From positions 400,406 to 446,583 of the forward strand of contig QPGO01000056.1 of NCBI GenBank assembly GCA_008632985.1: 46,178 bases of DNA, read 5' to 3'. This document shows positions 24,679-46,178 of the stretch, piece after piece. This stretch comes from Psammoneis japonica (lineage: Eukaryota). Under the pieces are notes generated by a model. It did not search any database. It was not told where the DNA came from and saw only the letters and a list, made by a program, of their open reading frames with translations. The translations under genes were made by a program, and so were the position numbers. Position 1 is the first letter of the stretch. Every line of letters starts with the position of its first letter.

Positions 24679-25571
24679 NNNNNNNNNNNNNNNNNNNNNN
24701 NNNNNNNNNNNNNNNNNNNNNNNNNNNNNNNNNNNNNNNNNNNNNNNNNNNNNNNNNNNNNNNNNNNNNNNNNNNNNNNNNNNNNNNNNNNNNNNNNNNN
24801 NNNNNNNNNNNNNNNNNNNNNNNNNNNNNNNNNNNNNNNNNNNNNNNNNNNNNNNNNNNNNNNNNNNNNNNNNNNNNNNNNNNNNNNNNNNNNNNNNNNN
24901 NNNNNNNNNNNNNNNNNNNNNNNNNNNNNNNNNNNNNNNNNNNNNNNNNNNNNNNNNNNNNNNNNNNNNNNNNNNNNNNNNNNNNNNNNNNNNNNNNNNN
25001 NNNNNNNNNNNNNNNNNNNNNNNNNNNNNNNNNNNNNNNNNNNNNNNNNNNNNNNNNNNNNNNNNNNNNNNNNNNNNNNNNNNNNNNNNNNNNNNNNNNN
25101 NNNNNNNNNNNNNNNNNNNNNNNNNNNNNNNNNNNNNNNNNNNNNNNNNNNNNNNNNNNNNNNNNNNNNNNNNNNNNNNNNNNNNNNNNNNNNNNNNNNN
25201 NNNNNNNNNNNNNNNNNNNNNNNNNNNNNNNNNNNNNNNNNNNNNNNNNNNNNNNNNNNNNNNNNNNNNNNNNNNNNNNNNNNNNNNNNNNNNNNNNNNN
25301 NNNNNNNNNNNNNNNNNNNNNNNNNNNNNNNNNNNNNNNNNNNNNNNNNNNNNNNNNNNNNNNNNNNNNNNNNNNNNNNNNNNNNNNNNNNNNNNNNNNN
25401 NNNNNNNNNNNNNNNNNNNNNNNNNNNNNNNNNNNNNNNNNNNNNNNNNNNNNNNNNNNNNNNNNNNNTTGAGCACCAGAAACAAGTGCAACAACGCAAA
25501 CGACACGAACAGAATTTGGCGAGCCCGAGTGCATCATTTGGAGTCAAAGGTAGAGTCCCTGGAGAGGACTA

Positions 25572-26815
25572 TTGAACAATTGTATTCCCTTTTTCATGAT
25601 GAGTGAATTGTTGAAGGAGCCTTGCATTGGCCACGAAGCCAAATTTGAGCACTCTGACTTGGAGGAAGTGAAATTGACCCAATCGCATGATGACGGTAGC
25701 ACTCGTACAAAAAAGTGTCCGCGTTTTGATGGCACTCATGGCATTGAAGCATTGTCATTCGTTGAGGATCGTTTTCGTAAAATTGCTGTGAAATTGGAGT
25801 GCACCACTGGCGAGGAGTTGTTCGAAAATTTCGAGGAAGTGCTTGCGGACGCTGCAGAGGACAAGTGGGCGAACTTGACCAATGCAATTGACGATGCCGA
25901 TAAAACTGTCGAGCGTTTTGATCAGGAAATCAATCATTTTTACTTGTCTTATTGTGACAATGAAGCGCGTGATGCGATGATTGAATGTTTGCCAACTTTG
26001 AAAAAACCATTCAAATCTGAAGCACAGGCGCATGCAGATCGCATGGAAACCTTGATTCGGTGCTCCAACAAACTTCCAGGAAATGCTCCTCAAGTCAACG
26101 AAGCTCAGAAGAAAAAGATGACATTTGACAGCTTTCCTCGTCCATGGCGTGAGATGTGTGCTCGAGCAGGACGAGCGATGGCGAACGACACTCTCGCTGA
26201 GATCATCAGTCACACGAACAACGAGAAATCTTTTGCTGACAAGAGTGGCAACAAGAAGCAGGACAAGAAGAGGAAAAGCAATGTGCTTCGTCTCAAGCTT
26301 CAAGACGCTCTCGTGGCAACAGTGGCAGAACGGATCCAGAATCTAGATGCCCGGTGCATGCGAATCACGACCACAAGTGGAAGGACTGTGTTTTGAATCC
26401 AGAAAGCCAAAACTGTCGACCGAGGTCCGACCGTGGCGGTCGCAGCGGAGGTCGTGGTGGAGGCCGAGGAAACTGCCAAGGTGGAGGACCCCAAGGTCAA
26501 GGCGGTCGTGGCAACTTCCAAGGTCGAGGACGTGGCAATTGTGGCAATCAAGGAGGACATGGAGGCCGAGGTTACGGCAATTGTGACAACTCCCAGAATT
26601 CTCAAGGGAATGGATCCCATTGCCAAAATCAAAACGGCACCCAAGCCAACGGTGACACCCAAGGCTGTGGAAATCCGGCTGGAGCAGCTCCTCCTGGTGG
26701 CTGGCAAATGGAGTCGCACCATTTTGATCAAGGAGGGCCTCGTGAGATGCGAGGTGGAAATGGATGCGATCAGAACGGTCGCACCCATCAAGGCCAACGA
26801 AGTTGGCGTAATTGA
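25572..26815 (+). pseudogene. gag: gag of element C (frameshifted; C-x2-H-x4-H-x4-C knuckle and Gly/Arg/Gln-rich tail)
   Basis: ORFs 25572-26396 and 26354-26815; C.MHANHDHKWKDC; RGG-rich tail. Confidence 0.8.
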
Positions 26816-26889
26816 CAAGGGACGGAAGTGCCCGAGTCAGAGCGTGTCGCTCAATCTTTTTATGTTTCGTGTGATCGTGAAGAAAATGC

Positions 26890-29800
26890 ATGTGTTTTAA
26901 TGTTGATGACAATGTGGGAGACCTGATGGAATCTCATGCTGTGAATGAAGAAAAATTGGGCGGCGTTTTGGAGTGCGCTGCACCAACCCCTAAAACTGCA
27001 ACTCCCAAACCATTGAATGTGGTGCCAACAACGTTGATGGCGGCGCGTGCCATTCAAAATCAAGAGAGCAAGCGAGTGTTGCGAGTGCCATTGGATTCAG
27101 GAGGCACTGACACTCTTGTTCATTCTCGAGTTTTGCCGAAGGGAGCGAATCCAACCATGAACGATGAAGGACGGTTGAGCTTTCAGACGGCAGCCGGACG
27201 ATGTGAATCCTCCCGACACGCCATTGTGAAGGACTTGACATTGCCAGAATTTGACAAGTCAAAACAAGTCGACAGTGTTGCGGCTCAAGTTTTTGATGCC
27301 CCATGCAAGTGTGATTTAATTTTGGGACAAGACTTTTTGTTGAAAGCCGGAATCGTGCTTGATTTTCGATTTGGAGTGATGAAGTGGTTGGAAACGTCGA
27401 TCCCAATGAAGCAATCCAATCATTGGAACTCAGTGCAGAATTGGTTGGATGCACTGGAAGACGACGGAGAGGATGAAGACAATGAGGAAGCCTTCGGACA
27501 ATCTTTTGTGATGGATGCCAAATGCGAGAAAGTGTCATCCGCGAAAGTGGCGCAAGCTCAAACTCACTTGACTCAAGAACAATGTGATGAGCTGCAGGCT
27601 GTGCTTGAAAAGCATGAAACCCTCTTTGATGGAACGCTTGGCAAACATCCGCATGAGACTGCTCACTTGGAAAATTGATCCCAATGCTGTTCCCTTCCAT
27701 TCTAAGGCTTGCGAAGTGTCCAAGAGGGATGAAGCCATTTTTAAGAAAGAACTGCAACATCTGTGTAACATTGGCGTGCTGGAACCAGTGGGACCAACTG
27801 AATGGGCAGCTGGAACTTTTGCAACTCCCAAAAAGGATGGACGAGTTCGATGGGTGTCCGATTTTCGAGAGTTGAACAAGGTGCTCAAACGAAAGGTCTG
27901 TCCTCTGCCGATCATTCAAGACGTTGTTCACCGACGCTCGGGATGCAAGTTGCTTGACCAAGTTGGACCTCACTGTGTTTTATCATCATGTCGAACTTGA
28001 CGAAGAATCCAAGGATTTGTGTGCCATTGTCACTCCATTTGGAAATTTCGATGTTGTCGATTGGCCATGGGTTTGAAAACCTCTCCCGACATTGCTCAAG
28101 CCATCATTGAAAAAGTGGCAAAAGGAATCGATGTTGAAACTTACATCGATGACATTGCTCAATTTGATGATTCGTTTGATGCTCACATGCGTCGACTCGA
28201 TGAGCTGTTGTCCAGACTAGAAGAGAACAATCTGAAAATTAACCCACTCAAGTGCGAATGGTGTGTCCAAGAGACGGATTTTTTAGCACGCCTGCAGGAG
28301 TCCGACCGTGGAAGAAGAAAGTGGAAGCGGTGCTACGAATGCAACCACCTGAAACTGTGATGCAACTGCGATCGTTTATCGGTGCGGCAACTTGTTGTCG
28401 CAACATGTGGCCTCGTCGCTCACACGTGCTCGCTCCACTCACGAAGTTGACAGGCAAGAGCAAGTTGGAATGGACCCCTGAATGTCAACGAGCCTTTGAA
28501 GACATGAAAACCTTGATGCTGGACGACACCCTTTGGGTCTGCCCGAATCACAACAAGCCATTCCATGTTTGTGCTGACTCTTCGGACTGTCAGATGGGAG
28601 CCGTGATCATGCAAGACGGGAAACCAGTGGCTTGCTGGTCCCGGAAACTCAGCGCAGCACAACAGAACTGCTCTACGATTGAAAAAGAATTGTTGGCGGT
28701 GGCAATGTGTTTCAAAGAATTTCGAAGCATGTCATTTGGAGCTGACTGCACTGTTTTTATGGATCATAAAAATCTCACCTTTCGTGCGCTCAATTCTCAA
28801 CGAGTTTTTAGGTGGCGACTCTTCTTGGAAGATTTTGCCCCAACTTTCGAATACGTTGATGGCAAAGACAATCTCTTGGCAGATTGTTTTTCAAGATTGC
28901 CGCACATGGACCCTCCTGCGGAAGGGAAGTGTGCTCCTAACAAGGGCAAGCTGATTGATTTTAAAACGATCGACCCTGCCATGCTGCCGCATGAAGAAGA
29001 ACTGGACGACCAAAACAGTGTGTCTCATTTTTCCTGTCGTCGTGAAGAACCATCTCCATTTCATTCTTCTGTCGTGGACGACCCCGAATTGTGTGAATCA
29101 TTTTTGAACTGTCCTTCTCTCGAGGAAATGCAAAACCCTGCAACTGTGCAACGAATTCAAGAACACCAATTCGTCGACGTGGAGCTGAACAATGTGCGAC
29201 AACAATGTCCAGAACGCTTTGTTGTGGAACATGTGAATCAGCGTCCTGTAATTTGTCATTGTGCTCGACCGAATGATCCTCCGACTGCGTGGAAAATTTG
29301 TGTTCCAACAGCGTTGCTGCATGATGTCATACGATGGTGTCATGGGATTTTGGGACATGCAGGAGTGCACCGAATGCATTCCACTGTTGGCGCACATTTC
29401 CATCATCCTGCCCTTCGTCAATCCTGTGAAAGATTTCATTGTGCTGATTGTCAACGTTTGAAAACTTTGGGCCCTGGACATGGGGACCCACCTGAACGGG
29501 AAGCGCCTTTGTCACCATGGACGGAAGTTGCGGTTGACCTCATCGGTCCCTGGAAAATTGAAATTCAAAACCATGAAATCGAATTCAACGCTTTGACTTG
29601 CATTGACACCGTTTCGAATGTGACTGAACTTGTTCGTGTCGACAACAAAACCTCGTCTCACATTGCTCAACAATTTGAAAATTGTTGGTTGTCTCGTTGT
29701 CCTCGTCCCAACCGGTGCATCCATGACAATGGTGGAGAATTCATTGGAGAGGACTTTCAATTGTCATTGCAACGAGCAGGAGTGGAAGACGCTCCGACTG

Positions 29801-30303
29801 CGTCGCGAAATCCACAAGCCAATGCGGCATGCGAGCGCATGCATCAAACTGTTGGAAACATCTTGCGCACTTTGCTTCATGTTTGTCCTCCACAGAATGT
29901 TGAGCAGGCCAATCAACTGGTGGACAATGCATTGGCAACCGCCATGCATGCAATGCGATGTGCGGTTTCTCGTGCTCTCAAGATTTCACCCGGTGCTGTG
30001 GTTTTTCAACGTGACATGATTCTTGACTTGCCGGTCCTAGCCGATCTTGCTGCCATTCAAGAACACCGACAAGCGATTGTCAATGCGAATCTCCGTCGAG
30101 CCAACGCTGAACGCCGATCCCACGATTTTCAAGTTGGCGGACAAGTTCTACTCAAGGCTGTCGACCCAACCAAGCTCGAGCCACGAGCTCACGGTCCACA
30201 TCCTGTCGTTCAAGTGCACGCCAATGGCACACTTACGGTCCAACGCACACCTCATGTGACAGAACGATTGAACATACGTCACGTCGCACCGTATCATACC
30301 TGA
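26890..30303 (+). pseudogene. pol: pol of element C, frameshifted and heavily Tyr->Cys/His mutated
   Basis: VPLDSGGT (PR); SDFRELNK, YIDD (RT); CADSSDCQMGAV, EKELLA (RH); HGILGHAG, CADC, VDLIGPW, DNGGEF, NPQANAACER (IN). Confidence 0.95.
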
Positions 30304-31035
30304 GGTTGAGGGTTTTCTCCCCAACATTTGGGTTTCCCTTCTATCCTCATCCATTGGAATTTNNNNNNNNNNNNNNNNNNNNNNNNNNNNNNNNNNNNNN
30401 NNNNNNNNNNNNNNNNNNNNNNNNNNNNNNNNNNNNNNNNNNNNNNNNNNNNNNNNNNNNNNNNNNNNNNNNNNNNNNNNNNNNNNNNNNNNNNNNNNNN
30501 NNNNNNNNNNNNNNNNNNNNNNNNNNNNNNNNNNNNNNNNNNNNNNNNNNNNNNNNNNNNNNNNNNNNNNNNNNNNNNNNNNNNNNNNNNNNNNNNNNNN
30601 NNNNNNNNNNNNNNNNNNNNNNNNNNNNNNNNNNNNNNNNNNNNNNNNNNNNNNNNNNNNNNNNNNNNNNNNNNNNNNNNNNNNNNNNNNNNNNNNNNNN
30701 NNNNNNNNNNNNNNNNNNNNNNNNNNNNNNNNNNNNNNNNNNNNNNNNNNNNNNNNNNNNNNNNNNNNNNNNNNNNNNNNNNNNNNNNNNNNNNNNNNNN
30801 NNNNNNNNNNNNNNNNNNNNNNNNNNNNNNNNNNNNNNNNNNNNNNNNNNNNNNNNNNNNNNNNNNNNNNNNNNNNNNNNNNNNNNNNNNNNNNNNNNNN
30901 NNNNNNNNNNNNNNNNNNNNNNNNNNNNNNNNNNNNNNNNNNNNNNNNNNNNNNNNNNNNNNNNNNNNNNNNNNNNNNNNNNNNNNNNNNNNNNNNNNNN
31001 NNNNNNNNNNNNNNNNNNNNNNNNNNNNNNNNNNN

Positions 31036-31412: not shown

Positions 31413-32493
31413 TCATTCTACTTTCAAGCCTTTATTTACCTTTTCCGTGATGTATTCCATTGCATCATTTTGCTTGGACTTACCCACCTTTGTGTTGCCC
31501 AAAGTAATGGCGACACGTTGCATCACAGCATCTGTAACTCGGTACAGCTCTTGGCCTTCATGAACAAACTTCTTTCCCTTGAAGGACGCCCACTTCGTCT
31601 CGAGGAATCCTTCTTGGTTAGCGTAATAACGCGTGGAGAGCACGACACTTTCCGGGAAGCGCAAAATGAATTGACGGACGCCAGCACCATGGATGCTGCC
31701 ATCCTCCTCGTCACGCAGCTTTGCGCAAACTTCTTATTTTTCATTTCAGTCTGGCTGCAGGCATCACACCAGTCTGTGGCCTTCACATGATAGAGATGAT
31801 ATTTGTGCCTGTACTGATACGGCGCCGACGGAACTGTCATCAAGATGTCCGTCTCCAAGACAACCTGAGCCCGGCAGTTGTTCATGAAGAAGTCCTGAGC
31901 ATGGGTGGAATAGTTCACTATGTCAAAACCTTTGTGAACTTTTCCATCATCCACAGGACTGTCTTTGTCCCTAAAGAAGGTGATCCCAAGGTTGCCAAAT
32001 ATGTCGTGGTTGGTCGGATTGTCGAGGTCCACCATAACCACCTTCAAACCTGTGGCAGAAGAAAGCAACACCAAATGGCAAGTTGTGTTGAGTATCCTCA
32101 CCGGAAGAGTCAGTGTCAAATCCTGACATGAGTCGTGCTGTGGATCTCTCGGCCGGTTTGAACGCCGAGGTTTGCGAGATGTCGACAGCACTCTGCTTCT
32201 GGAAGCGAGAGATAATGACGAATGCGTTGGCGAATTTTTTCTCTCAAATCAGATCCAGGTGGCCCGAAGAGATCACTTTGCCCTTTGCAAAGCCTGCAAA
32301 TGTGAAGGTGATATGGGAGTCGTTGCTGCCCAAATGCAAGCCCGCCCGATTCCTCAATGTGTGTGATGAGTTCGCACTCGAGTTCTAATGGAAGTCCACA
32401 GCTGTTAGACCATTGAACTTGTTGCTGACAGTTGCCAATAGTAGTACCGCTGTCTTCTGCTGTTTTTGTGTCACTTGGGGTGTTCCCGTCCAT
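31413..32493 (-). pseudogene. Accessory ORF-A (~350 aa when frameshifts are joined), unknown function
   Basis: Successive protein-like frames LCKGQSDLFGPPGSDLREKIRQRIRHY / VMVDLDNPTNHDIFG..KVHKGFDIV / YYANQEGFLETKW; lesions differ between the two copies. Confidence 0.6.
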
Positions 32494-32735
32494 GAGCAAT
32501 GCACAGCGACATGAAACAAAAGTTTTCGCTGAAGCCAGCCGATCTCTTTGGAAGAGCAATCTGGTTTGTTGAAAGCGCACCAAAAACATCTGCAACGCAT
32601 TGGATTTCAATAAATAAATATAACGGTTGGAATTCTGGGGGCAATTGAACTTTCTAAGTAGAAAGATGCCGTTAATGGTTGGATTTTTCGCGTGACTGAA
32701 TTTTCGCTCGTCTTTCCAAAAACCGACGATGCACC

Positions 32736-33661
32736 ATGATGGGCCGAATGGAGAAACGACAAACAAAAGACCGCCCAAAGAAATGGGAGGAGCCGACAAA
32801 GAAGATGGGAGGAGATAAGGAGAGGCCACCTGCAAAAAAACAGAGCGAGGAAGCAGCTCGGTGGAGGAAAAGCTCAGCAAAAGCTCTGCTTCAGCAGGAT
32901 CTCCAACAAGGCCAGATCCCACTTGATGCGGCTACCATGAGTGCCGAGGACATATGGTGGCAACGTACAGAGTTTGTCGACTTCAGCTTTGACTTTTTTA
33001 AAGCCCGTTTGGTGTGCTATCGCAACAAAATATTCAAGGAAACTCACCCAGAGCTGGCACTACCGCAGCACGTCACAGGTGGCAGGAAATCCCGAATGAA
33101 GGAGGAGAAAGCAGCGGATAAGGCAAAAAAGGAAGAAGCAAAAAAGAAGCATTCACAAGAAGCAATTTTGTGGAGGAAAGGTGGGCTAAGGCATCTCCTC
33201 CAGCAAGATCTCTGTCGAGGGGAAATCCCAGTTGACGACAGTGGCATGACTGCTGATGAAGCATGGTGGCAATGCCCAGAATATACCGAGTTCAGCCTTG
33301 AGTTCTTCGAGGCTCGTTGGAGCACTATAGAGAAAAAGCATGCATGGAAAATCATCAAGCTGCTGCTGATGAGCTAGCACTGGCTCATGACAGGTGGCTG
33401 TTCCCCAAGAAGCCAACCAATTCCATCGGCAAGCCTCGATGGGAAGGATCTTTGGCAGAGAAATATTTGAAGATAGACATTGACAAGGAAAAGCACACAG
33501 TGCTTGCACCACGAGAACTTCGCAAAACCCGTGAAGAGCACCAGGTATTCGAGCTGGAGGTGTTCAGAAAGCACATTCACCAAGAGGTGAAAAAGCGAAA
33601 ATACATTGCGTGGTGCAAGAACGATGCAGAGAAGAAGGCAAAGGGAGAAAAGAAGCAGTAA
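32736..33661 (+). pseudogene. Accessory ORF-B (~300 aa) with three W-x3-4-AxxLL-x2-D helical repeats; 1-bp frameshift at ~33318
   Basis: WRKSSAKALLQQDL..WWQRTEF..F..RL; WRKGGLRHLLQQDL..WWQCPEY..F..R; WEGSLAEKYLKIDI..TREEH..F..HI; copy 2 has the extra T that restores the frame. Confidence 0.7.
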
Positions 33662-33695
33662 CTTTCCAGAAACTACCTAATTAGTAGCTGCCACC

Positions 33696-34031
33696 TTATT
33701 CCACCACCATGCCATCCCCACGCTTTTTCTTCTTGGCGCCACCCTCCATGGTCGTCTTGAATGATGCGAGCAAGCGATCCGCAAGTTTCTTGACATCGCT
33801 CTCGTCAAGTCCCATCTTGCCAAACTTCCTGGCGAGCACATCGACTTCTTCTAAAGGCTGCATCTCCTTGATAAACTTCTTCTTGATGTAGAAACTGACG
33901 TCCTTTTCATACAAAAGCACCTTGACCTTCTGCGCGGTGATCTTTTTCACCCTTCCCCATTCGCCTTGGTGTTCTCCACCGACAATGTCAATGCTTCCTT
34001 TGGCAATCATGGTGGCCTTTTCTGTTTCCAA
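33696..34031 (-). CDS. Accessory ORF-C, small KOW-motif protein with basic tail
   Basis: KGSI(V)DIVGGEHQGEWGRVKKITAQKVKV fits the KOW pattern; KKKKR at the C-terminus. Confidence 0.6.
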   Translation of the reverse strand: METEKATMIAKGSIDIVGGEHQGEWGRVKKITAQKVKVLLYEKDVSFYIKKKFIKEMQPLEEVDVLARKFGKMGLDESDVKKLADRLLASFKTTMEGGAKKKKRGDGMVVE

Positions 34032-34903: not shown

Positions 34904-36130
34904 GAGGTCACTTGCTTGACGAAGTCACCCCACCTACATTCGATAACCCCGATAAACATGTATGAACACTTCAATGATGAGGTGCGAAGGGGGGCTGCTT
35001 CGCAGTCGACCCCAACTCGGCAAGCGTCCTCTTACATAACAACCCATGATAGGAAGGGGGGTGTTCTAAAGGCTGCATCTCCTTGATAAACTTCTCAAAC
35101 ATTGGAAAGCTCTAAGTAAAACACTCAGAACACGCACAAAGCCATGGCAACCCCCAAGGGAGCAGAGGTGCTGATCACACCTTGAAGCTGCGAACCCAAT
35201 GCAGAAGACAAGGCGACGTTCATGGTCCCGCGTCTGCAAGCACACCTGCTCGAGCCCACGTGCCAGCAGGACAGGACCTCTGGGCACTGGCAAACCACCA
35301 GCACTCAGAATAAATTAGATGCTCTGATTGGTCCCCAACGTGTCAGTGAAAAGGTAAGCTCAGTGGTGGAGCTTCGCCGATCATAGGACGAGGCCGGGGG
35401 TTCGAGTCCCTCCCTTTTTCCGTACACACGTGCTTGAACCGGCAACCCGGAAACGGGTTGAGGTCACTTGCTTGACGAAGTCGCCCCACCTACATTCGAT
35501 AACCCCGATAAACATGTATGAATACTTCAATAATGAGGTGCGACGGGGGGCTGCTTCGCAGTCGACCCCAACTCGGCAAGCGTCCTCTTACATAACAACC
35601 CATGATAGGAAGGGGGGTGTTCCCTAACAGAACCCTACCCTACACCGTGCGAACCCTAACCCTGGGCACAGCAAGGAAGGGGGGCGTTCCCTAACCGAAC
35701 CCTACCCTACACCGTGCGAACCCTAACCCTGGGCAGTGCACCCTAACTGGAACCCCAGCAGTTAGGAACGGTGGCCCTATCCACTTAGGGAAGGGCGCGG
35801 CAGTGACGCCTTCGATTAAGCAAACATTGGAAAGCTCTAAGTAAAACACTCAGAACACGCGCAAAGCCATGGCAACCCCCAAGGAGCAGAGGTGCTGATC
35901 ACACCTTGAAGCAGCGAACCCAATGCAGAAGACAAGGCGACGTTCATGGTCCCACGTCTGCAAGCACACCTGCTCGAGCCCACGTGCCAGCAGGACAGGA
36001 CCTCTGGGCACTGGCAAACCACCAGCACTCAGAATAAATTAGATGCTCTGATTGGTCCCCAACGTGTCAGTGAAAAGGTAAGCTCAGTGGTGGAGCTTCG
36101 CCGATCATAGGACGAGGCCGGGGGTTCGAG
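34899..36130 (+). repeat. ~725-bp tandem repeat (period 35096->35821) with tRNA-like segment and CCCTAA-like motifs
   Basis: caaacattggaaagctctaag at 35096 and 35821; gggttgaggtcacttgc at 34899 and ~35455; the family continues at 41336-41388 and 42252-43109. Confidence 0.88.
35348..35420 (+). ncRNA. tRNA-derived Pol III unit (degenerate cloverleaf) within the repeat
   Basis: Acceptor GAAAAGG/CCTTTTT, D-arm GCTC-AGTGGTG-GAGC (A box), T-arm GGGGG-TTCGAGT-CCCTC (B box); anticodon arm imperfect. Confidence 0.7.
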
Positions 36131-36409
36131 NNNNNNNNNNNNNNNNNNNNNNNNNNNNNNNNNNNNNNNNNNNNNNNNNNNNNNNNNNNNNNNNNNNNNN
36201 NNNNNNNNNNNNNNNNNNNNNNNNNNNNNNNNNNNNNNNNNNNNNNNNNNNNNNNNNNNNNNNNNNNNNNNNNNNNNNNNNNNNNNNNNNNNNNNNNNNN
36301 NNNNNNNNNNNNNNNNNNNNNNNNNNNNNNNNNNNNNNNNNNNNNNNNNNNNNNNNNNNNNNNNNNNNNNNNNNNNNNNNNNNNNNNNNNNNNNNNNNNN
36401 NNNNNNNNN

Positions 36410-39400
36410 TGAGATTAAATTTTGCTCTGTGATTTTTGGTTTCTCCGAACGAGTTCTCAATGGCCTAAAGCTTCTGCGCTGCTTCTACAGACAAAAGGCC
36501 TTTCGGAGAATATAAGTGACAACAGATAGTCCGAATACGATTGCTTTTGACACATAAGATGTCAGCATCGTCCATCGATCGTATTTGCGATTTTCGACTT
36601 CCGATCAACTCTGTGTGATCGTTCTGTCCTTTGTACGCATCCACGACTGTGGTACGATTGACATATAAATAATATATAATCATAAATATGTATATAACAG
36701 TCGCATACTGCATTCGCCTCCCTAATTGCACATTAGAGTCATTTGTTAAGTGGATTATTCGACGGATATTGACAGTGTCAATAATGTCTCCACGTTCACT
36801 GTATTGTGCCATTAGTAATGACTGTTGTCGTTTTGTATAGGCCATGTGGGGCCGTTCCAATTTCCGAATGTCTTATGAGAGTGACATCGTTTGTTTCTCA
36901 CTTTATATATATATGTATACACAGTATTACGTCGAGTATTCTCGTTGACGTTCTTTGTTGATATGAACACAAGGACCAATTGTCCTGCAGTGTTTTTCAT
37001 GATATCGATTGTACCTGGCATTATGCCCAGTGCTTGATGTACGCTCTTTTAATTATTATGGCGTTCACTTTACTTGTGGAGTTCGTGTAGTTCTGGCTGG
37101 CTAACTTTATATGTGCCATGTTGCTCTGCTGCACTTCCACGTCGTAAGTAATTAACGATGGTCAAGGATATTTTCTAACCATTTCGTCTTGATAATCCTG
37201 GGATGGTTATGGATTCCTTTATGGATTTCTTTATTACTTCAACCATCTTTCCTTTGGATTTTGATCGTTATTTGGACGTTTCTTTTTGACATACCGGTGA
37301 CATTTCGTCATTCCGAAGGCACTGCTTTTGTGCACTATTCGGATAAATAATGTCCATTTTTGTGTTTTGTTTCTGAATCTTTGGCACATCTCGTGTGACG
37401 TTATTTATGTCTTGCCTCGTACATCGTACATTACAATCGTACGGGTGCTGTGAGATTGTCTTTTGCCAATGTGAAGTAGGTGCATATAATGTATGCCAAT
37501 CTGTCACTGATTTTTTCTTTAACCGTCCCTAAATAAGGCGATTTTTTCCTTATGACATGAGCATTTTTGATCTCGCTCGCCTCCACGAAAAGTGTTCGTA
37601 TGATATGTCGCGTCCGACAATTTGGAGGAAATGTCTTTATCCCATTTTGTTCAGTGTCGAGAACTTTGCAATTTAACGGAAAGACATTGTCGTAGGATTT
37701 TGGTAGGACCTTTTCAGCTAACTCTTCTGTGCTGAGGTTTTCCATAGGTTCTATTTTTTTATAGTAAGTCGGCTGATCGCTCTTGCGACGACGTTCGCCT
37801 TGTCCTCGATGTATTTTAATTCGGGACTGAAATTTTTTATTTTAAGTCGTCAACGCATGACTATGTCCGTTGTGTGTTATGAACCGTGTGTATAATAATC
37901 TGTTGGCCAAACAGTATATTCCGGGAATTATTAAGTGTTTCCACTATGGACAGAAGTTCTTTTTCCGTTGTGACTTGAATGTTACAATACCATGTTTGAT
38001 AATGACATAGTTTTTGATATGATGCGCTCCATATTTTCGGAGACTTTTCGTTCTGTACTTGTCCTTTTGCCGTTTGACCTTTATTGAGGTGGATTTGGCT
38101 AGAAATGTACAGGAGATCATTGAGACTACATGTCTTTATAGTAGTAACGTATATCGACAAGCTGTCGTAATATTCTTTACGTTTTGCTCAATGTTGCGAT
38201 TGCCGGAATCGCCTCCATTTTCTTTGTAATCGGATGTATACCGTTACGTATGGAAGTCTTGATAATATTTTTCAAGTTAAGTAGTGAAGGACTTTTGTTT
38301 GTTAACCTTCAAAGCGACTGTTCTAGTCGTATGAATGCCATTTCAAGTTTTTCTTGTACAGGTGACATTTTGAAGTTACTTTCTGTCAGGTATAAACGTT
38401 CATTCATAGTCGTTCTGACAACTTTAAACCTGTCATGAGTTTGCTCATGTGTTGTATGAAAATATCTGGGGCTCTATAGATTCTTGTTGGAAGTCTATAG
38501 CACTCGTTTTCCCCCACGGCATTATTCTGATGTGAGCACGACGTGTGCTTTCTTGATTTTACATCGTGGTGTTCCATGTTTGAATCGTAATTTCATTTTT
38601 AAATCTTCAATCTTTCATAATTGGTTAAATTCCTTTCAAATGGACGCCTCCAAAGACTATGATAGGAGAAGGTTCTCACACGTCGCGTAATCGCGTCAGA
38701 TTTTTCATGGTGAGATCCACTGGTTCTTCCCATTCATTTGTCCAATGAACTTTTCAAAAGGATTTTAAACCTCATAAGAAGGAGACTGAGTGGTTTATCT
38801 TCTTTTGGTTTAGATGTATTGCTGTAGCTGTCACTTGATTAGAATCGACGGTGTGATAATGTGAGTCGAGAACCATCGGTCTCGTTATTAACTCTATTCA
38901 CTGGTGATATTTTTCAATGTGATCGGCATTCAGCTGGAACATTTTTGTATCGAAGAGTGCATCAACATTCTTCATAGGGTAATTGCTTCATTCCCATTTG
39001 ATTTCTTCAATTGCGTAGTCTAGTATGATTGCAAGACTGGACATTAAGTCGCGTCCCATGATCATGTCATTCGACCTTGAAGGGTATTTGGTGTTATTGA
39101 CATGTGCTGTTTGAATATCAGTAAGTCTTAAATTCGCGTAGTGAGAACTGAATTCGGTGTTTACTATCAGTCGTAAAGAGCTCACCCTTGGTTTCCCAAG
39201 TTTTTTGGTGGCGGATATTTTGGTTCTCAACTTTCGCACGATTTTGCGTAAAATCATGGGCTGACGATGTTCTTTATCGAGAGAACACGTAGAAGCTTAT
39301 TTTTTGCTTTTCTCAGAGTAGCAGTCATATAGACAGCGAGAATAGGACTCGCACAACATACTGTGATGCTTTTTCTGGGTTTCCAGACATCCTGTAACGC

Positions 39401-40977
39401 GTTATACTCCTCGAGCGGTATAAATTTTTGATCGGACTCGATCGGGTCAATTTTTCTAAATTGATAGTTTTATTCGCTAAGCGTTTTAGAGTCTTAATTT
39501 TTGCTCTTGCGCTTTTTATCTTTGTTCGAAGAACTCGCTTTGAGTATTTTTTTGAACTGCTTGGATAACCACAGCATTCAACTCTTCTTTGCGAGAGGCA
39601 TTATCGTTATCGCGACGCGACCGCGTGCGATTGCCATTTGAACTGTGCCGTTTTGGATCACATTTATCGTGTCCACGGCGTTCTTTCGCTAGTTCTTTTG
39701 CAGAATAGCCTGAATCCGTGATGCAGGTGTTCTTTATTGAAAGATTGGACCTTGCATTCACTTTGGATTGTTCTGGCACCACACAGGAGACCATTTTTGG
39801 AACCAAAATTGGAACCTTTTTGATTATGGAATCAACTGCGCTATCAGAGCCTGAGTTGATAAATTTTTTTGTCACAGACGTCCTTGCCGACCTCTAGACG
39901 ACTCAAACCTCAATCAGCTTGTCAAGGGTATGATCCAGTAGTTCAACATTTTGGACAGTAGGCTGATGCTGCCATCCTTGCGGTGCGAGTGATAGCTGAT
40001 AACTCAGCGCTCGTTTTCCCGCTAGATTCGACTTAGAATCGATCTGAGGGTCATATAGACTCTCATCATTGACCTCTTGGGTCTATCAGAGGCTTCTTTG
40101 CTGTTGAGCGGCTCTGGTTTCTTCAGGTCGTCTCGAAAATAATTTCCCTGATTCTGAAGTGCATTTCCTCAGAGGACATGAGTTATGAGACGCTTGAGTA
40201 CTTTCCAACGATTCCCTCTTGCTCCTTGGACTCGAGGATCATCGATTCGGTCTCAAAAAACTCTCCAATAGTCTCTCCTTGCATGGTAGACGTATTTCTC
40301 GGATCTGATCGACTCGGAACTTGCATTCTCTGCAACCATGAATTGGTGTAGATTTTTTGATAATGCGGTGTACTTGAGAGCCCTTGATCCTTGGGTGCTT
40401 GGAATAGACCGTATTAGAGCGAATCCTCTCGTTTGGTAGACGAAAAACAGCGTTCCATCTTGAGGTACTGCTCGGATTGAGCTTCTTCCGCTCGGAAATC
40501 GATTCCAGCAGAACTGATGCGATTCGCTCCTGTTTAGAAGAATTTACAAAGGCATGTTAGTTAAAATTTTCATTTTCCGTGCTTTTTACCTTCTGTGGTG
40601 TGTATACACAATGCACTATGCTCGAAGAACGAGTGTAAACGAAAGTAGAATAGTGTACGAAAAGTGGAAATTATGAGATTAAATTTTGCTCTTTGATTTT
40701 GGTTTCTCCGAACGAGTTCTCAATGGCCTAAAGCTTCTGTGCTGCTTCTACAGACAAAAGGCCTTTCGGAGAATATAATCGTGACAACAGATAGTCCGAA
40801 TACGATTGCTTTTGACACATAAGATGTCAGCATCGTCCATCGATCGTATTTGCGATTTTCGACTTCCGATCAACTCTGTGTGATCGTTCTGTCCTTCGCA
40901 CGCATCCACGACTGTGGCACGATTGACACATAAATGATGTGTAATCACATGTATGTACACAACAGTCGCATACTGCA
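36410..40977 (-). mobile_element. Second copy (B') of the non-autonomous Gypsy element B, much less TpA-mutated
   Basis: LTRs at 36410-36712 (partial, gap) and 40612-40977; internal region colinear with the reverse complement of 13026-17019; PPT at 36713-36724. Confidence 0.92.
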
Positions 40978-41335
40978 ATTGGGCCCGTAGACTTCTACGT
41001 GCGAGCTCCGTAGTAATTTATATGGTAATTAAAATGTCAATGATCGCCAACAGAAAATGAGGCAATTTTGCGAACGCACAAACTCGCACATGATTTAAGT
41101 GCATCATTTTTTACTTAGCCAGTTACATTCTTCAGACATTGAAGAATGTAACTGGCGCATTATTGTTTCTATAAATTTGTCATATAAAACGTCTGGGGCT
41201 TCGCAAAACAGCGAGTCTGGACAATTTTTTTAATATCACAAGTAGAAATCTACGTACGAAACATACGACGGATGATAAAAATTATTGTTGTCACACGTCA
41301 GTACTACGAGCTCCCACCTAGGGCTGGAATGCGTC
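40978..41335. mobile_element. MITE family 1 copy lacking its first ~35 bp (apparently interrupted by B')
   Basis: Begins attgggcccgtagac (internal to the MITE end), ends CCCACCTAGGGCTGGAATGCGTC; near-duplicate of 41424-41698. Confidence 0.85.
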
Positions 41336-42251: not shown

Positions 42252-43109
42252 GATCGTAGGACGAGGCCGGGGTTCGAGTCCCTCCCTTTTTCCGTACACA
42301 CGTGCTTGAACCGGCAACCCGGAAATGGGTTGAGGTTACTTGCTTGACGAAGTTGCCCCACCTACATTCGATAACCCGACAAACATGTATGAACACTTCA
42401 ACAATGAGGTGCGACGGGGGGCTGCTTCGCAGTCGACCCCAACTCGGCAATCGTCCTCTTACATAACAACCCATGATGGGAAGGGGGGTGTTCCCCAACC
42501 GAACCCTACCCTACACCGTGCGAACCCTAACCCTGGGCACAGCAAGGAAGGGGGCGTTCCCTAACCGAACCCTGCCCTACACCGTGCGAACCCTAACACT
42601 GGGCAGTGCACCCTAACTGGAACCCCAGTAGTTAGGAACGGGTGGCCCTATCCCACTTAGGGAAGGGCGCGGCAGTGACGCCTTCGATTAAGCAAACATT
42701 GGAAAGCTCTAAGTAAAACACTTGGAACATGCGCAAAGCCATGGCAACCCCCAAGGGAGCAGAGGTGCTGATCACACCTTGAAGCAGCGAACCCAATGTA
42801 GAAGACAAGGCGACGTTCATGGTCCCGCGTCTGCAAGCACACCTGCTCGAGCCCACGTGCCAGCAGGACAGGACCTCTGGGCACTGGCAAACCACCAGCA
42901 CTCAGAATAAATTAGATGCTCTGATTGGTCCCCAACGTGTCAGTGAAAAGGTAAGCTCAGTGGTGGAGCTTCGCCGATCATAGGACGAGGCCGGGGGTTC
43001 GAGTCCCTCCCTTTTTCCGTACACACGTGCTTGAACGGCAACCCGGAAACGGGTTGAGGTCACTTGCTTGACAAAGTCGCCCCACCTACATTCGATAACC
43101 CGATAAACA
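42252..43109 (+). repeat. ~725-bp tandem repeat, further unit plus terminal partial unit
   Basis: Colinear with 35379-36130 and 35400-35514. Confidence 0.88.
42945..43017 (+). ncRNA. tRNA-derived Pol III unit, another copy
   Basis: Matches 35348-35420; partial copies at 36072-36130 and 42252-42292. Confidence 0.7.
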
Positions 43110-43294: not shown

Positions 43295-46178
43295 TGCTCT
43301 ATAGCTAGATCGTAGCTAACCCACTGCTGTAGACATTACGTCACCACTAACAAATATCCTAAATCTTGTTGTCCCTCACTAAAGCTGATCATTCTACTTT
43401 CAAGCCTTAATTTACCTTTTCCGTGATGTATTCCATTGCATCATTTTGCTTGGACTTACCATCTTTGTGTTGCCCGAAGTGATGGCGACACGTTGCATCA
43501 CAGCATCTGTAACTCGGTGCAGCTCTTGGCCTTCATGAACAAACTTCTTTCCCTTGAAGGACGCCCACTTCGTCTCGAGGAATCCTTCTTGGTTAGCGTA
43601 ATAACGCGTGAGAGCATGACACTTTCCGGGAAGCACAAAATGAATTGACGGATGCCAGCACCATGGATGCTGCCATCCTCCTCGTCACGCAGCTTTTGCG
43701 CAAACTTCTTATTTTTCATTTCAGTCTGGCTGCAGGCATCACACCAGTCTATAGCCTTCACATGATAGAGATGATATTTGTGCCTGCACTGATACGGCGC
43801 TGACGGAACTGTCATCAAGATGTCCGTCTCCGAGACAACTGAGCCCGGCAGTTGTTCATGAAGAAGTCCTGAGCATGGGCGGAATAGTTCACTATGTCAA
43901 AACCTTTGTGAACTTTTCCATCATCCACAGGACTGTCTTTGTCCCTAAAAAGGTGATCCCAAGGTTGCCGAATGTGTCGTGGTTGGTCGGATCGTCGAGG
44001 TCCACCATAACCACCTTCAAACCTGTGGCAGAAGAAAGCAACACCAAATGGCAAGTTGTGTCGAGTATCCTCGCCGGAAGAGTCAGTGTCAAATCCTGAC
44101 ATGGCGGTGTTGGACTTCTGTTGGTGGTGAGTCGTGCTGTGGATCTCTCGGCCGGTTTGAACGCCGAGGTTTCCGAGATGTCGACAGTGCTCTGCTTCTG
44201 GAAGCGAGCGATAATAACGAATGCGTTGGCGAATTTTTTCTCTCAAATCAGATCCAGGTGGCCCGAAGAGATCACTTTTGCCCTTTGCAAAGCCTGCAAA
44301 CGTGAAGGTGATGTGGGAGTCGTTGCTGCCCAAATGCAAGCCCGCCCGATTCCTCAATGTGTGTGATGAGTTCGCACTCGAGTTCTAATGGAAGTCCACA
44401 GCTGTTGGACCATTGAACTTGTTGCTGACAGTTGCCAACAGTAGTACCGCTGTCTTCTGCTGTTTTGTGTCACTTGGGGTGTTCCCGTCCATGAGCAATG
44501 CACAGCGACATGAAACAAAAGTTTTCGCTGAAGCCAGCCGATCTCTTTGGAAGAGCAATCTGGTTTGTTGAAAGCGCACCAAAAACATCTGCAACGCATT
44601 GGATTTCAATAAGTAAATATAACGGTTGGAATTCTGGGGGCAATTGAACTTCCTAAGTAGAAAGATGCCGTTAACGGTTGGATTTTTTCGCGTGACTGAA
44701 TTTTCGCTCGTCTTTCCAAAAACCGACGATGCACCATGATGGGCCGAACGGAGAAACGACAAACAAAAGACCGCCCAAAGAAATGGGAGGAGCCAACAAA
44801 GAAGATGGGAGGAGATAAGGAGAGGCCACCTGCAAAAAAACAGAGCGAGGAAGCAGCTCGGTGGAGGAAAAGCTCAGCAAAAGCTCTGCTTCAGCAGGAT
44901 CTCCGACAAGGCCAGATCCCACTTGATGCGGCTACCATGAGTGCCGAGGACATATGGTGGCAACGTACAGAGTTTGTTGACTTCAGCTTTGACTTTTTTT
45001 AAAGCCCGTTTGGTGTGCTATCACAACAAAATATTCAAGGAAACTCACCCAGAGCTGGCACTACCACAGCACATCACAGGTGGCAGGAAATCCCGAACGA
45101 AGGAGGACAAAGCAGCGGATAAGGCAAAAAAGGAAGAAGCAAAAAAGAAGCATTCACAAGAAGCAATTTTGTGGAGGAAAGGTGGGCCAAGGCATCTCCT
45201 CCAGCAAGATCTCCGTCGAGGGGAAATCCCAGTTGACGACAGTGGCATGACTGCTGATGAAGCATGGTGGCAACGCCCAGAATATACCGAGTTCAGCCTT
45301 GAGTTCTTCGAGGCTCGTTTGGAGCACTATAGAGAAAAAGCATGCATGGAAAATCATCAAGCTGCTGCTGATGANGCACTGGCTCATGACAGGCGGCTGT
45401 TCCCAAGAAGCCAACCAATTCCATTGGCAAGCCTCGATGGATCTTTGCAGAAAAATATTTGAAGACAGACATTGACAAGGAAAAGCACACAGTGCTTGCA
45501 CCACGAGAACTTTGCAAAACCCATGAAGAGCACCAGGTATTCGAGCTAGAGGTGTTCAGAAAGCACATTCACCAAGAGTGAAAAAGCGAAAATACATTGC
45601 GTGCAAGANACGATGCAGAGAAGAAGGCAAAGGGAGAAAAGAAGTAGTAACTTTCCAGAAACTACCTAATTAGTAGCTGCTACCTTGTTCCACCACCATG
45701 CCATCCCCACGCTTTTTCTTCTTGGCGCCACCCTCCATGGTCGTCTTGAATGATGCGAGCAAGCGATCCGCAAGTTTCTGACATCGCTCTCGTCAAGTCC
45801 CATCTTGCCAACCTCCTGGCGAGCACATCGACTTCTTCTAAAGGCTGCATCTCCTTGATGAACTTCTTCTTGATGTAGAACGTGTCGTCCTTTTCATGCA
45901 AAAGCACCTTGACCTTCTGCGCGGTGATCTTTTTCACCCTTCCCCATTCGCCTTGGTGTTCTCCACCGACAACGTCAACGATACTTCCTTTGGCAATCAT
46001 GGTGGCCTTTTCTGTTCCAATTGTGGATTGTGATTTGACTGCGAGTGTGAGCTGTGTAGTGCTGTGCTGTAGCATGGACCGTGAGCATGTGGAACTACAT
46101 TTGCACACTACAATTGTAGCCACCTAATCTATACGGCAAACCTGTCGAACATGTAAGTCCCACAAAATCTTGACTATT
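43295..46178. mobile_element. Harbinger-like cassette, copy 2 (ORF-A 43389-44492 minus, ORF-B 44736-45650 plus, ORF-C ~45680-46000 minus; transposase expected beyond the window end)
   Basis: Colinear direct duplicate of 31318-34190 with independent indels. Confidence 0.75.

Follow-up and report, generated by a model that had tools for sequence, protein, structure and literature searches.

The only description that we found of hypermutation aimed at the TpA dinucleotide is a 2026 preprint on two viral inserts (nucleocytoplasmic large DNA virus and virophage) in one alga, Bigelowiella natans, where TpA becomes TpG or CpA (Mettrop et al., bioRxiv 10.64898/2026.01.13.699255). The preprint reports a de novo rate about 1000-fold above background that is on in some lines only, proposes an ADAT2-like deaminase, and places reverse transcriptase (RT) and transposase domains among TpA-poor genes (bioRxiv 10.64898/2026.01.13.699255). 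We find mutation of the same type in the diatom Psammoneis japonica. Our window, the whole analysed stretch of 46,178 nucleotides (GCA_008632985.1, contig QPGO01000056.1, positions 400,406 to 446,583), contains element C, which by its sequence is a broken Ty3/Gypsy long terminal repeat (LTR) retrotransposon. In this element and its relatives TA has been converted to TG or CA, and conserved tyrosines have become cysteine or histidine. The process acts on DNA, after insertion, strictly at TpA, equally on both strands, independently in each copy, nearly neutrally and in the same domains as CpG decay, a description of which we are almost certain.

Features of the B. natans process recur here: A:T-to-G:C transitions confined almost wholly to TpA, action on both strands at the DNA level, and regional targeting of foreign-derived DNA that spares host genes. 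The differences are the diatom host, the LTR retrotransposon targets, and an extent close to saturation across roughly half of the sampled DNA. Repeat-induced point mutation (RIP), which depends on RID/DNMT4 in ascomycete fungi, makes TA from CA and TG. It too is a post-insertion, transition-only, dinucleotide-specific mutation of transposons, but the polarity here is the opposite (T:A to C:G) and homology alone is no trigger, host genes duplicated at 97–99.9% identity being spared. Diatoms carry DNMT4 enzymes related to RID, and CG methylation of their transposons by DNMT5 is established (PMC9998398). The CpG decay of methylated transposons is present here as well, in the same domains, but it is much slower than TA conversion and acts on C:G. 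Bacterial TadA-dependent A-to-I editing of mRNA needs UACG in a stem-loop. It leaves the protein signature seen here, but at the RNA level and on one strand, whereas our process hits DNA on both strands and does not prefer TACG. Among the non-synonymous events of TadA editing, 255 are Tyr>Cys and 70 Thr>Ala (PMC12255301).

Results

Element C is ordinary as an element and unusual only in its mutational state. It shares the protease-RT-RNase H-integrase order of diatom Ty3/Gypsy elements and has named homologues from Nitzschia inconspicua and Amphora coffeaeformis. Pfam matches run from Asp protease (below cut-off) through RT_RNaseH and Integrase_H2C2 to rve (below cut-off), with a YIDD motif in between. 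Other copies of the family carry direct LTR pairs of about 162 bp (17 of 20 fetched copies) and 5-bp target duplications (at least 7). The window copy has at least three frameshifting deletions. Its parts are as follows (o/e, observed/expected ratio; aa, amino acids).

25469..30362, forward strand: element C, Ty3/Gypsy internal part, flanked by two assembly gaps; TA o/e 0.13; LTRs absent from the assembly here
25572..26815, forward strand: gag-like region, frameshift-split into frames 25554-26396 and 26240-26815, the first piece without a Pfam match
26881..27678, forward strand: aspartic protease region (265 aa, none of them Tyr); contains VPLDSG at 27085-27102
27674..28302, forward strand: reverse transcriptase core, fragmented; YIDD at 28142-28153 intact, in a resistant TTACA context
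28243..30303, forward strand: frame of 686 aa spanning RT thumb, RNase H and integrase; 7 of its 10 conserved Tyr columns hold Cys

Outside homologues keep the tyrosines that element C has lost. An earlier note on this DNA had read twelve short motifs as Gypsy Pol or its relatives with residues replaced or kept, and all twelve are present in the window: on the forward strand of element C, VPLDSG (27085), ATCCRNMWP (28387), HVCADSSDCQMG (28564), VACWSRKL (28627), QQNCSTIEKE (28660), SRCPRP (29692) and RAHGPHPV (30184); four in element A at 18015-19641 on the reverse strand; and RYPRP in paralogue D at 22936 on the forward strand. That Gypsy Pol normally has Tyr at these positions agrees with our counts. 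Ten columns carry Tyr in at least 70% of 120 outside homologues (for example 118/120, 120/120 and 118/120) and Cys in none; at these ten the window copy has 7 Cys, 2 Tyr and 1 Phe, the Phe being family-specific. Across 19 close copies in this genome, the 188 cells at Tyr columns hold 97 Cys, 38 His, 35 Tyr and 18 Phe. A 666-aa stretch of the window contains 2 Tyr where the homologue median is 24, 30 Cys where it is 10, and 35 His where it is 22. Nor do homologues in a second set of 120 share the Cys and His residues, with 1076 Tyr, 9 His and 2 Cys. Among the 240 homologous proteins the sole outlier is P0137, with 7 Cys or His at 22 Tyr-rich columns where the others have at most 4. P0137 is a Tyr-poor Gypsy protein (608 aa, of which 9 are Tyr and 22 Cys); nothing in this genome matches it above 71%, and its composition is a single hint of the TA process in another organism.

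The earlier note had traced every replacement to TA; some departures are instead CpG decay or family-specific residues. In RAHGP the His that precedes GP is native to the family, and the changed residue is the one that follows GP (9 His and 9 Cys in 18 copies). At VPLDSG the Leu codon has become CCA in the window, and 19 copies encode 11 Pro, 5 Leu and 3 Ser.

Natural copies of the family fix the direction of change. Searching the host assembly (91.4 Mb, 597 contigs) gave at least 50 matches, with 40 of 159 candidates scored; we analysed 20 copies at 93–100% identity in detail and 10 further loci more lightly. The TA-richest natural copy served as our reference, or ruler (TA o/e 0.59 versus 0.09–0.24 in the other copies), and is itself partly converted (37 sites versus 255 kept). 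At its 87 pol TA sites, 19 other copies have TG in 45.5% of cells, CA in 31.3% and TA in 21.3%, with CG in 1 of 1627. About 79% of TA sites are thus converted (70–86% per copy), while sequence divergence among these copies outside TA sites is 1.4–4.3%. At 71 of the 87 sites some copies have TG and others CA, and two such products at one site in different copies require a TA ancestor. This ancestry, the conserved tyrosines and the LTR pairs described below are three independent lines that agree with the direction first proposed, from TA to TG or CA. Ordinary RIP with its polarity misread would involve the same three dinucleotides, and a sequencing or assembly artefact might also be suspected. 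The TA ancestor refutes that polarity and the tyrosines point the same way. As for artefact, contigs from run X1 carry the same variants: among the 40 of 62 differences listed, 19 of 19 A>G and 9 of 13 T>C changes fall at TA, although X1 may be the source sample and so is not biologically independent. We give misread RIP or artefact practically no credence.

TA conversion happens after insertion and separately in each copy. After one spurious 67% pair was dropped, 17 LTR pairs showed 175 differences: 137 linked to TA, 20 attributable to CpG decay and 18 of other kinds. Within a single insertion the two LTRs disagree at TA sites, often with one fully hit and the other untouched, so the mutation postdates insertion. 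These pairs refute A-to-I editing of the retrotransposon RNA by an ADAR-like enzyme, or reverse transcriptase error, fixed at insertion. The raw sense-strand excess of TG over CA (45.5 versus 31.3%) and two A_deamin genes in the genome had spoken for such an RNA stage, but the excess disappears after context correction and both products occur in every copy, which leaves this origin very improbable. Agreement between copies in the choice of TG or CA is 0.652, against 0.653 expected from site bias, and the most similar copy pair was equalled in 9 of 200 shuffles. Converted copies therefore did not found other copies in the analysed set. Two insertions (L040 and L042) have LTRs that are 100% identical and unhit around interiors converted at 78%; they fit a fast process, one that outruns ordinary LTR divergence. 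LTR divergence is unusable for dating elements hit by TA conversion.

Conversion is specific to TpA and prefers a following pyrimidine. Compared like for like, the A>G rate is 0.385 at TA, 0.055 at CA and 0.015 at AA and GA; changes in the ruler copy probably raise the CA figure, because rare A>G variants outside TA are level at AA, CA and GA (1.7–2.5 per 1000 cells). By the base 3' of the A, conversion is 0.55 for C, 0.46 for T, 0.25 for G and 0.23 for A, so that a pyrimidine doubles the rate and TAY is the preferred context. In a lightly converted copy, 27 of 31 hit sites are TAY, whereas its background has TAY at 231 of 394. Sites in TTTA/TAAA tracts are protected (mean retention 0.49–0.73 versus 0.06–0.39), and CGTA and TGTA half-sites are poor targets (0.15 and 0.22). 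TACG, at 0.56, stands level with TACA (0.55), TACC (0.62) and TACT (0.51). TA next to CG is retained more often (0.27 versus 0.09, P 0.002), with no dependence on whether that CG is intact in the same copy (P 0.64, from 53 decayed cells only). In old kilobases poor in both TA and CG (L121-L138), 18 of 84 surviving TAC triplets have G as the next base, versus 7% ACG among all ACN, which suggests that TACG resists both TA conversion and CpG decay. A TA photoproduct of ultraviolet light was rejected as the lesion, since it gives mainly transversions.

The two strands are hit equally and without visible coordination. After context correction, rates on the two strands are 0.55 and 0.54 at YTAY and 0.24 and 0.24 at RTAR. 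Neighbouring conversions 2–400 nt apart show no strand coordination (z 0.4, -1.3, -0.3 and 0.3), a result that saturation can blur, and no nucleosome-scale periodicity of conversion was seen. Retained TA sites do cluster within copies (z 2–7).

These patterns bear on whether TpA mutation could come from an error-prone polymerase of the Y family (iota- or eta-like) that places G opposite T at TpA while copying or repairing heterochromatin. Pol iota prefers G opposite T, and the genome has Rev1, kappa, eta, iota-like and second eta-like genes; the iota-like and two eta-like polymerases are at L104, L105 and L107 (G000:C22, C18, C19). Pol eta mutates A at WA motifs (PMC4686820). Here AA is not hit above CA (2.5 versus 2.4 per 1000), so the motif is not WA. 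Transversions are also rare, strand-coordinated tracts are absent, and there is no local link to CpG repair; a polymerase origin is in our view rather improbable.

TA conversion is neutral decay of DNA that proteins register as lost tyrosine. Silent and missense TA sites are converted at near-equal rates (pol TAY 0.53 versus 0.50), with missense slightly below silent in all four classes compared, which argues for neutral decay and against the recoding that the earlier note had named. The Tyr-to-Cys/His pattern arises because both Tyr codons start with TA, in the preferred TAY context. TA conversion by itself alters about 73 amino acids in each Pol and 25 in each Gag. Per Pol copy the changes are Y>C 17.2, T>A 10.0, I>V 8.6, Y>H 7.9, V>A 7.9, M>V 6.2, L>S 3.7, N>D 2.6, I>M 2.4, L>P 2.2, K>E 1.9 and I>T 1.7. 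The L>P, I>M/T and V>A changes first listed are thereby confirmed, but that list had missed the classes in which TA spans a codon boundary (T>A, I>V and M>V).

This missense load likely kills the element's proteins. Inactivation by missense, as first proposed, is plausible given the number of changes and the lack of shared ancestry among conversions, but the window copy is also frameshifted, and the RT YIDD motif survives in 18 of 18 copies. We reject selection on the tyrosine of YIDD as the reason, since resistance is a general property of TTACA/TGTAA sites and older families do carry Cys or His at that position.

Stop codons are affected mainly out of frame. Counted on both strands, TAA and TAG triplets number 95 and 77 in the ruler and fall to 26–42 and 14–22 in six copies. 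The proposed erasure of TAA and TAG thus holds out of frame; in frame, TGA serves as both terminal stops of the element C family, TAR sites are converted least, and CGA>TGA accounts for 29 of 31 premature stops. Internal stops in 72 genomic matches are TGA in 113 of 119 cases by hand count. Spurious frames stay open once TAA and TAG are lost, and stops that are TGA alone can look like a variant genetic code. Open long frames and the near-exclusive TGA stops would indeed suit Cys/His forms that are a selected functional variant, or that are read as Tyr under another code. Yet Cys, His and Tyr are mixed in the same column among copies, homologues keep Tyr, silent and missense rates are alike, and the TGA stops derive from CGA. 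Nor did the 19 copies include a recent family sharing converted states, and we regard both ideas as having next to no chance.

TA loss and CpG decay share domains in the sampled DNA. We sampled the large contigs of the genome by reading 18 segments, each 10 kb long and placed at a fixed offset, a non-random choice in which depleted kilobases were counted as a class. Sampled kilobases are bimodal, 99 of 180 having TA o/e below 0.25 and 4 lying between 0.25 and 0.4, and 68 of the 71 CG-poor kilobases are also TA-poor. TA o/e is about 0.45–0.6 at most host-gene loci and 0.68–1.02 in 23 metagenome relatives. These relatives show no TA loss, which says little about its spread, as the search patterns favour intact sequence and assemblies collapse repeats. 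Conversion is 0.74–0.85 inside the element and 0.31 and 0.47 in the LTRs, and hit LTRs tend to have a TA-poor outer flank too (rho -0.55, n=32). CG decay affects 18 of 140 sites in 15 hit LTRs versus 0 of 154 in 16 spared LTRs (P 9e-7). G>A occurs at 31 per 1000 cells at CG, versus 1.3–3.8 at other G, and a copy has lost 6–16% of its CG versus 70–86% of its TA. Locally there is no trend of conversion with distance to CG (rho -0.04), and TA is kept near decayed CG 133 times against 138 expected; the link between TA and CG thus holds at domain scale only.

DNA homology alone is not the trigger. The genome has 24 silicon-transporter matches, which together with the diatom origin of the named homologues mark the host as a diatom. 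Six silicon-transporter genes that are 97–99.9% identical (the 99.9% pair on one contig) keep TA o/e of 0.42–0.49, although some may be alleles or very recent duplicates. Three silicon-transporter units, 65–68% alike, form one 1511-aa open frame (L114-L116, G000:C38:226311-230342).

The domain shared with CpG decay invites the proposal of a writer enzyme for silenced chromatin that would tag TpA, a palindrome, as DNMTs tag CpG, with N6-methyladenine or a modified thymine that then miscodes or is processed to G:C. Strict dinucleotide specificity, strand symmetry and the lack of strand coordination all resemble symmetrical recognition of the CpG type, and the genome has 27 C5-methylase matches, one of which resembles DNMT1-type structures. 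MT-A70 and TET/JBP searches gave no match in this genome, but they were silent in every control genome and hence are uninformative. We know of no methylated adenine or thymine that gives so clean and fast a transition, which counts against a TpA writer, and we consider it unlikely while still deserving attention. A search for DNMT5 gave two weak methylase frames, with no SNF2 match in the 7 neighbouring frames scanned; one, compared with solved structures, had no match. C5 DNA-methylase genes at L065, L066, L067, L071 and L074 (G000:C301, C297, C28), several of them broken and several on one contig, lie in strongly TA-depleted DNA (o/e 0.03–0.11), perhaps as cargo of a mobile or viral element that TA conversion also struck.

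Other families in the window show TA conversion at several stages.

17712..21870, reverse strand: element A, second Gypsy family, partly converted (TA o/e 0.26-0.41); carries four of the quoted motifs
22274..23969, forward strand: paralogue D, integrase pieces, partly converted (TA o/e 0.32-0.57); RYPRP kept at 22936
12659..17387, strand not assigned: converted copy of the A-like family, compared with the TA-rich relative
36400..41000, strand not assigned: TA-rich relative (TA o/e 0.72) that serves as comparator for the second family inside the window
1..2500, strand not assigned: old block, TA (0.03) and CG (0.31) both depleted

At 262 TA sites of the TA-rich relative, the A-like copy has 90 CA, 76 TG and 56 TA, so the element C pattern repeats in a second family inside the window. 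Paralogue D, introduced in the earlier note as the less mutated one, does keep RYPRP but is itself partly converted. The block at 1..2500 is likely the end state of TA conversion plus CpG decay. A duplication at 31484-33991 and 43459-45978, 12 kb apart and 95.5% identical over 2.8 kb, is moderately TA-poor, and 13 of its 72 TA sites differ as TG or CA. CCCTAA-like (AACCCTA) repeats with 66-67-nt periodicity at 35096-36119 and 42269-43101 are possibly subtelomeric or transposon ends.

Discussion

We tentatively favour a host activity in silenced chromatin that works by adenine deamination, a complete statement in which we place somewhat less than even confidence. A retrotransposon would insert and be silenced; a host activity would then mutate A:T to G:C at TpA across the silenced domain, presumably CpG-methylated heterochromatin. 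Conversion would proceed site by site on either strand until resistant contexts alone remain. The lesion may be deamination of adenine to hypoxanthine by an enzyme of ADAT/TadA or ADAR fold recruited to chromatin, with the deaminated base fixed as G at replication. We rank adenine deamination first because of the clean transition, the 5' T and the B. natans precedent. Pure transitions with a 5' T fit inosine chemistry.

Candidate enzymes are present in ordinary number. The genome has an ADAT2-like gene (G000:C26), expected in any eukaryote, a TadA-like gene and two A_deamin genes. The latter are separate genes of ADAT1/ADAR fold (L143 and L144/L145; G000:C40, C79), one of which, compared with solved structures, resembles ADAR deaminase domains. 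A zinc deaminase domain shares one open frame with DIOX_N / 2OG-Fe(II) oxygenase (L055:313-1785, G000:C79), probably for nucleobase catabolism. In favour of deamination, MPG glycosylase had no match in the genome, a weak negative given that 4 of 14 controls matched.

Several observations weigh against deamination in silenced chromatin. The deaminase set is unexpanded, no enzyme is singled out, and the frames scanned contain no chromatin-reader fusion. Neighbouring conversions are uncoordinated between strands, where a processive single-strand deaminase would tend to leave coordination; the TadA motif TACG is not preferred; and an endonuclease V gene is present. Methylation of the hit domains is itself inferred from CpG decay, and across whole copies the correlation of TA conversion with CG decay is marginal (rho 0.43, P 0.065, n=19). 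Sequence alone cannot separate a lesion on A from a lesion on T.

The process itself is barely known, and what is new here is another lineage, retrotransposon targets, near saturation and the boundary with CpG decay. Our literature search, which left most subscription papers outside its reach, found no report of TpA hypermutation in diatoms. The main text of the B. natans preprint makes no mention of diatoms, LTRs, CpG, trinucleotides or tyrosine, and its supplements may bear on the context rule (bioRxiv 10.64898/2026.01.13.699255). What we add to that main text is the TAY rule, the domain edge common to TA loss and CpG decay, and the outcome for proteins.

Diatoms may possess a dedicated genome-defence mutator. 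In the boldest reading, which we hold to be possible but doubtful, this mutator would be guided by the silencing mark that also guides CpG methylation, not by homology, and would attack the A (or T) of TpA in double-stranded DNA. Such a natural A-to-G editor of DNA, common to diatoms and chlorarachniophytes and so perhaps ancient in the Stramenopiles, Alveolates and Rhizaria (SAR), would have rewritten about half of this genome. For finding the enzyme, the diatom offers sites by the thousand, a rule of sequence context and sharp domain edges that coincide with those of CpG decay, and it belongs to a group open to genetics. If such an adenine editor of DNA, specific to TpA, exists in nature, it would matter for the biology of genome defence and for base editing.

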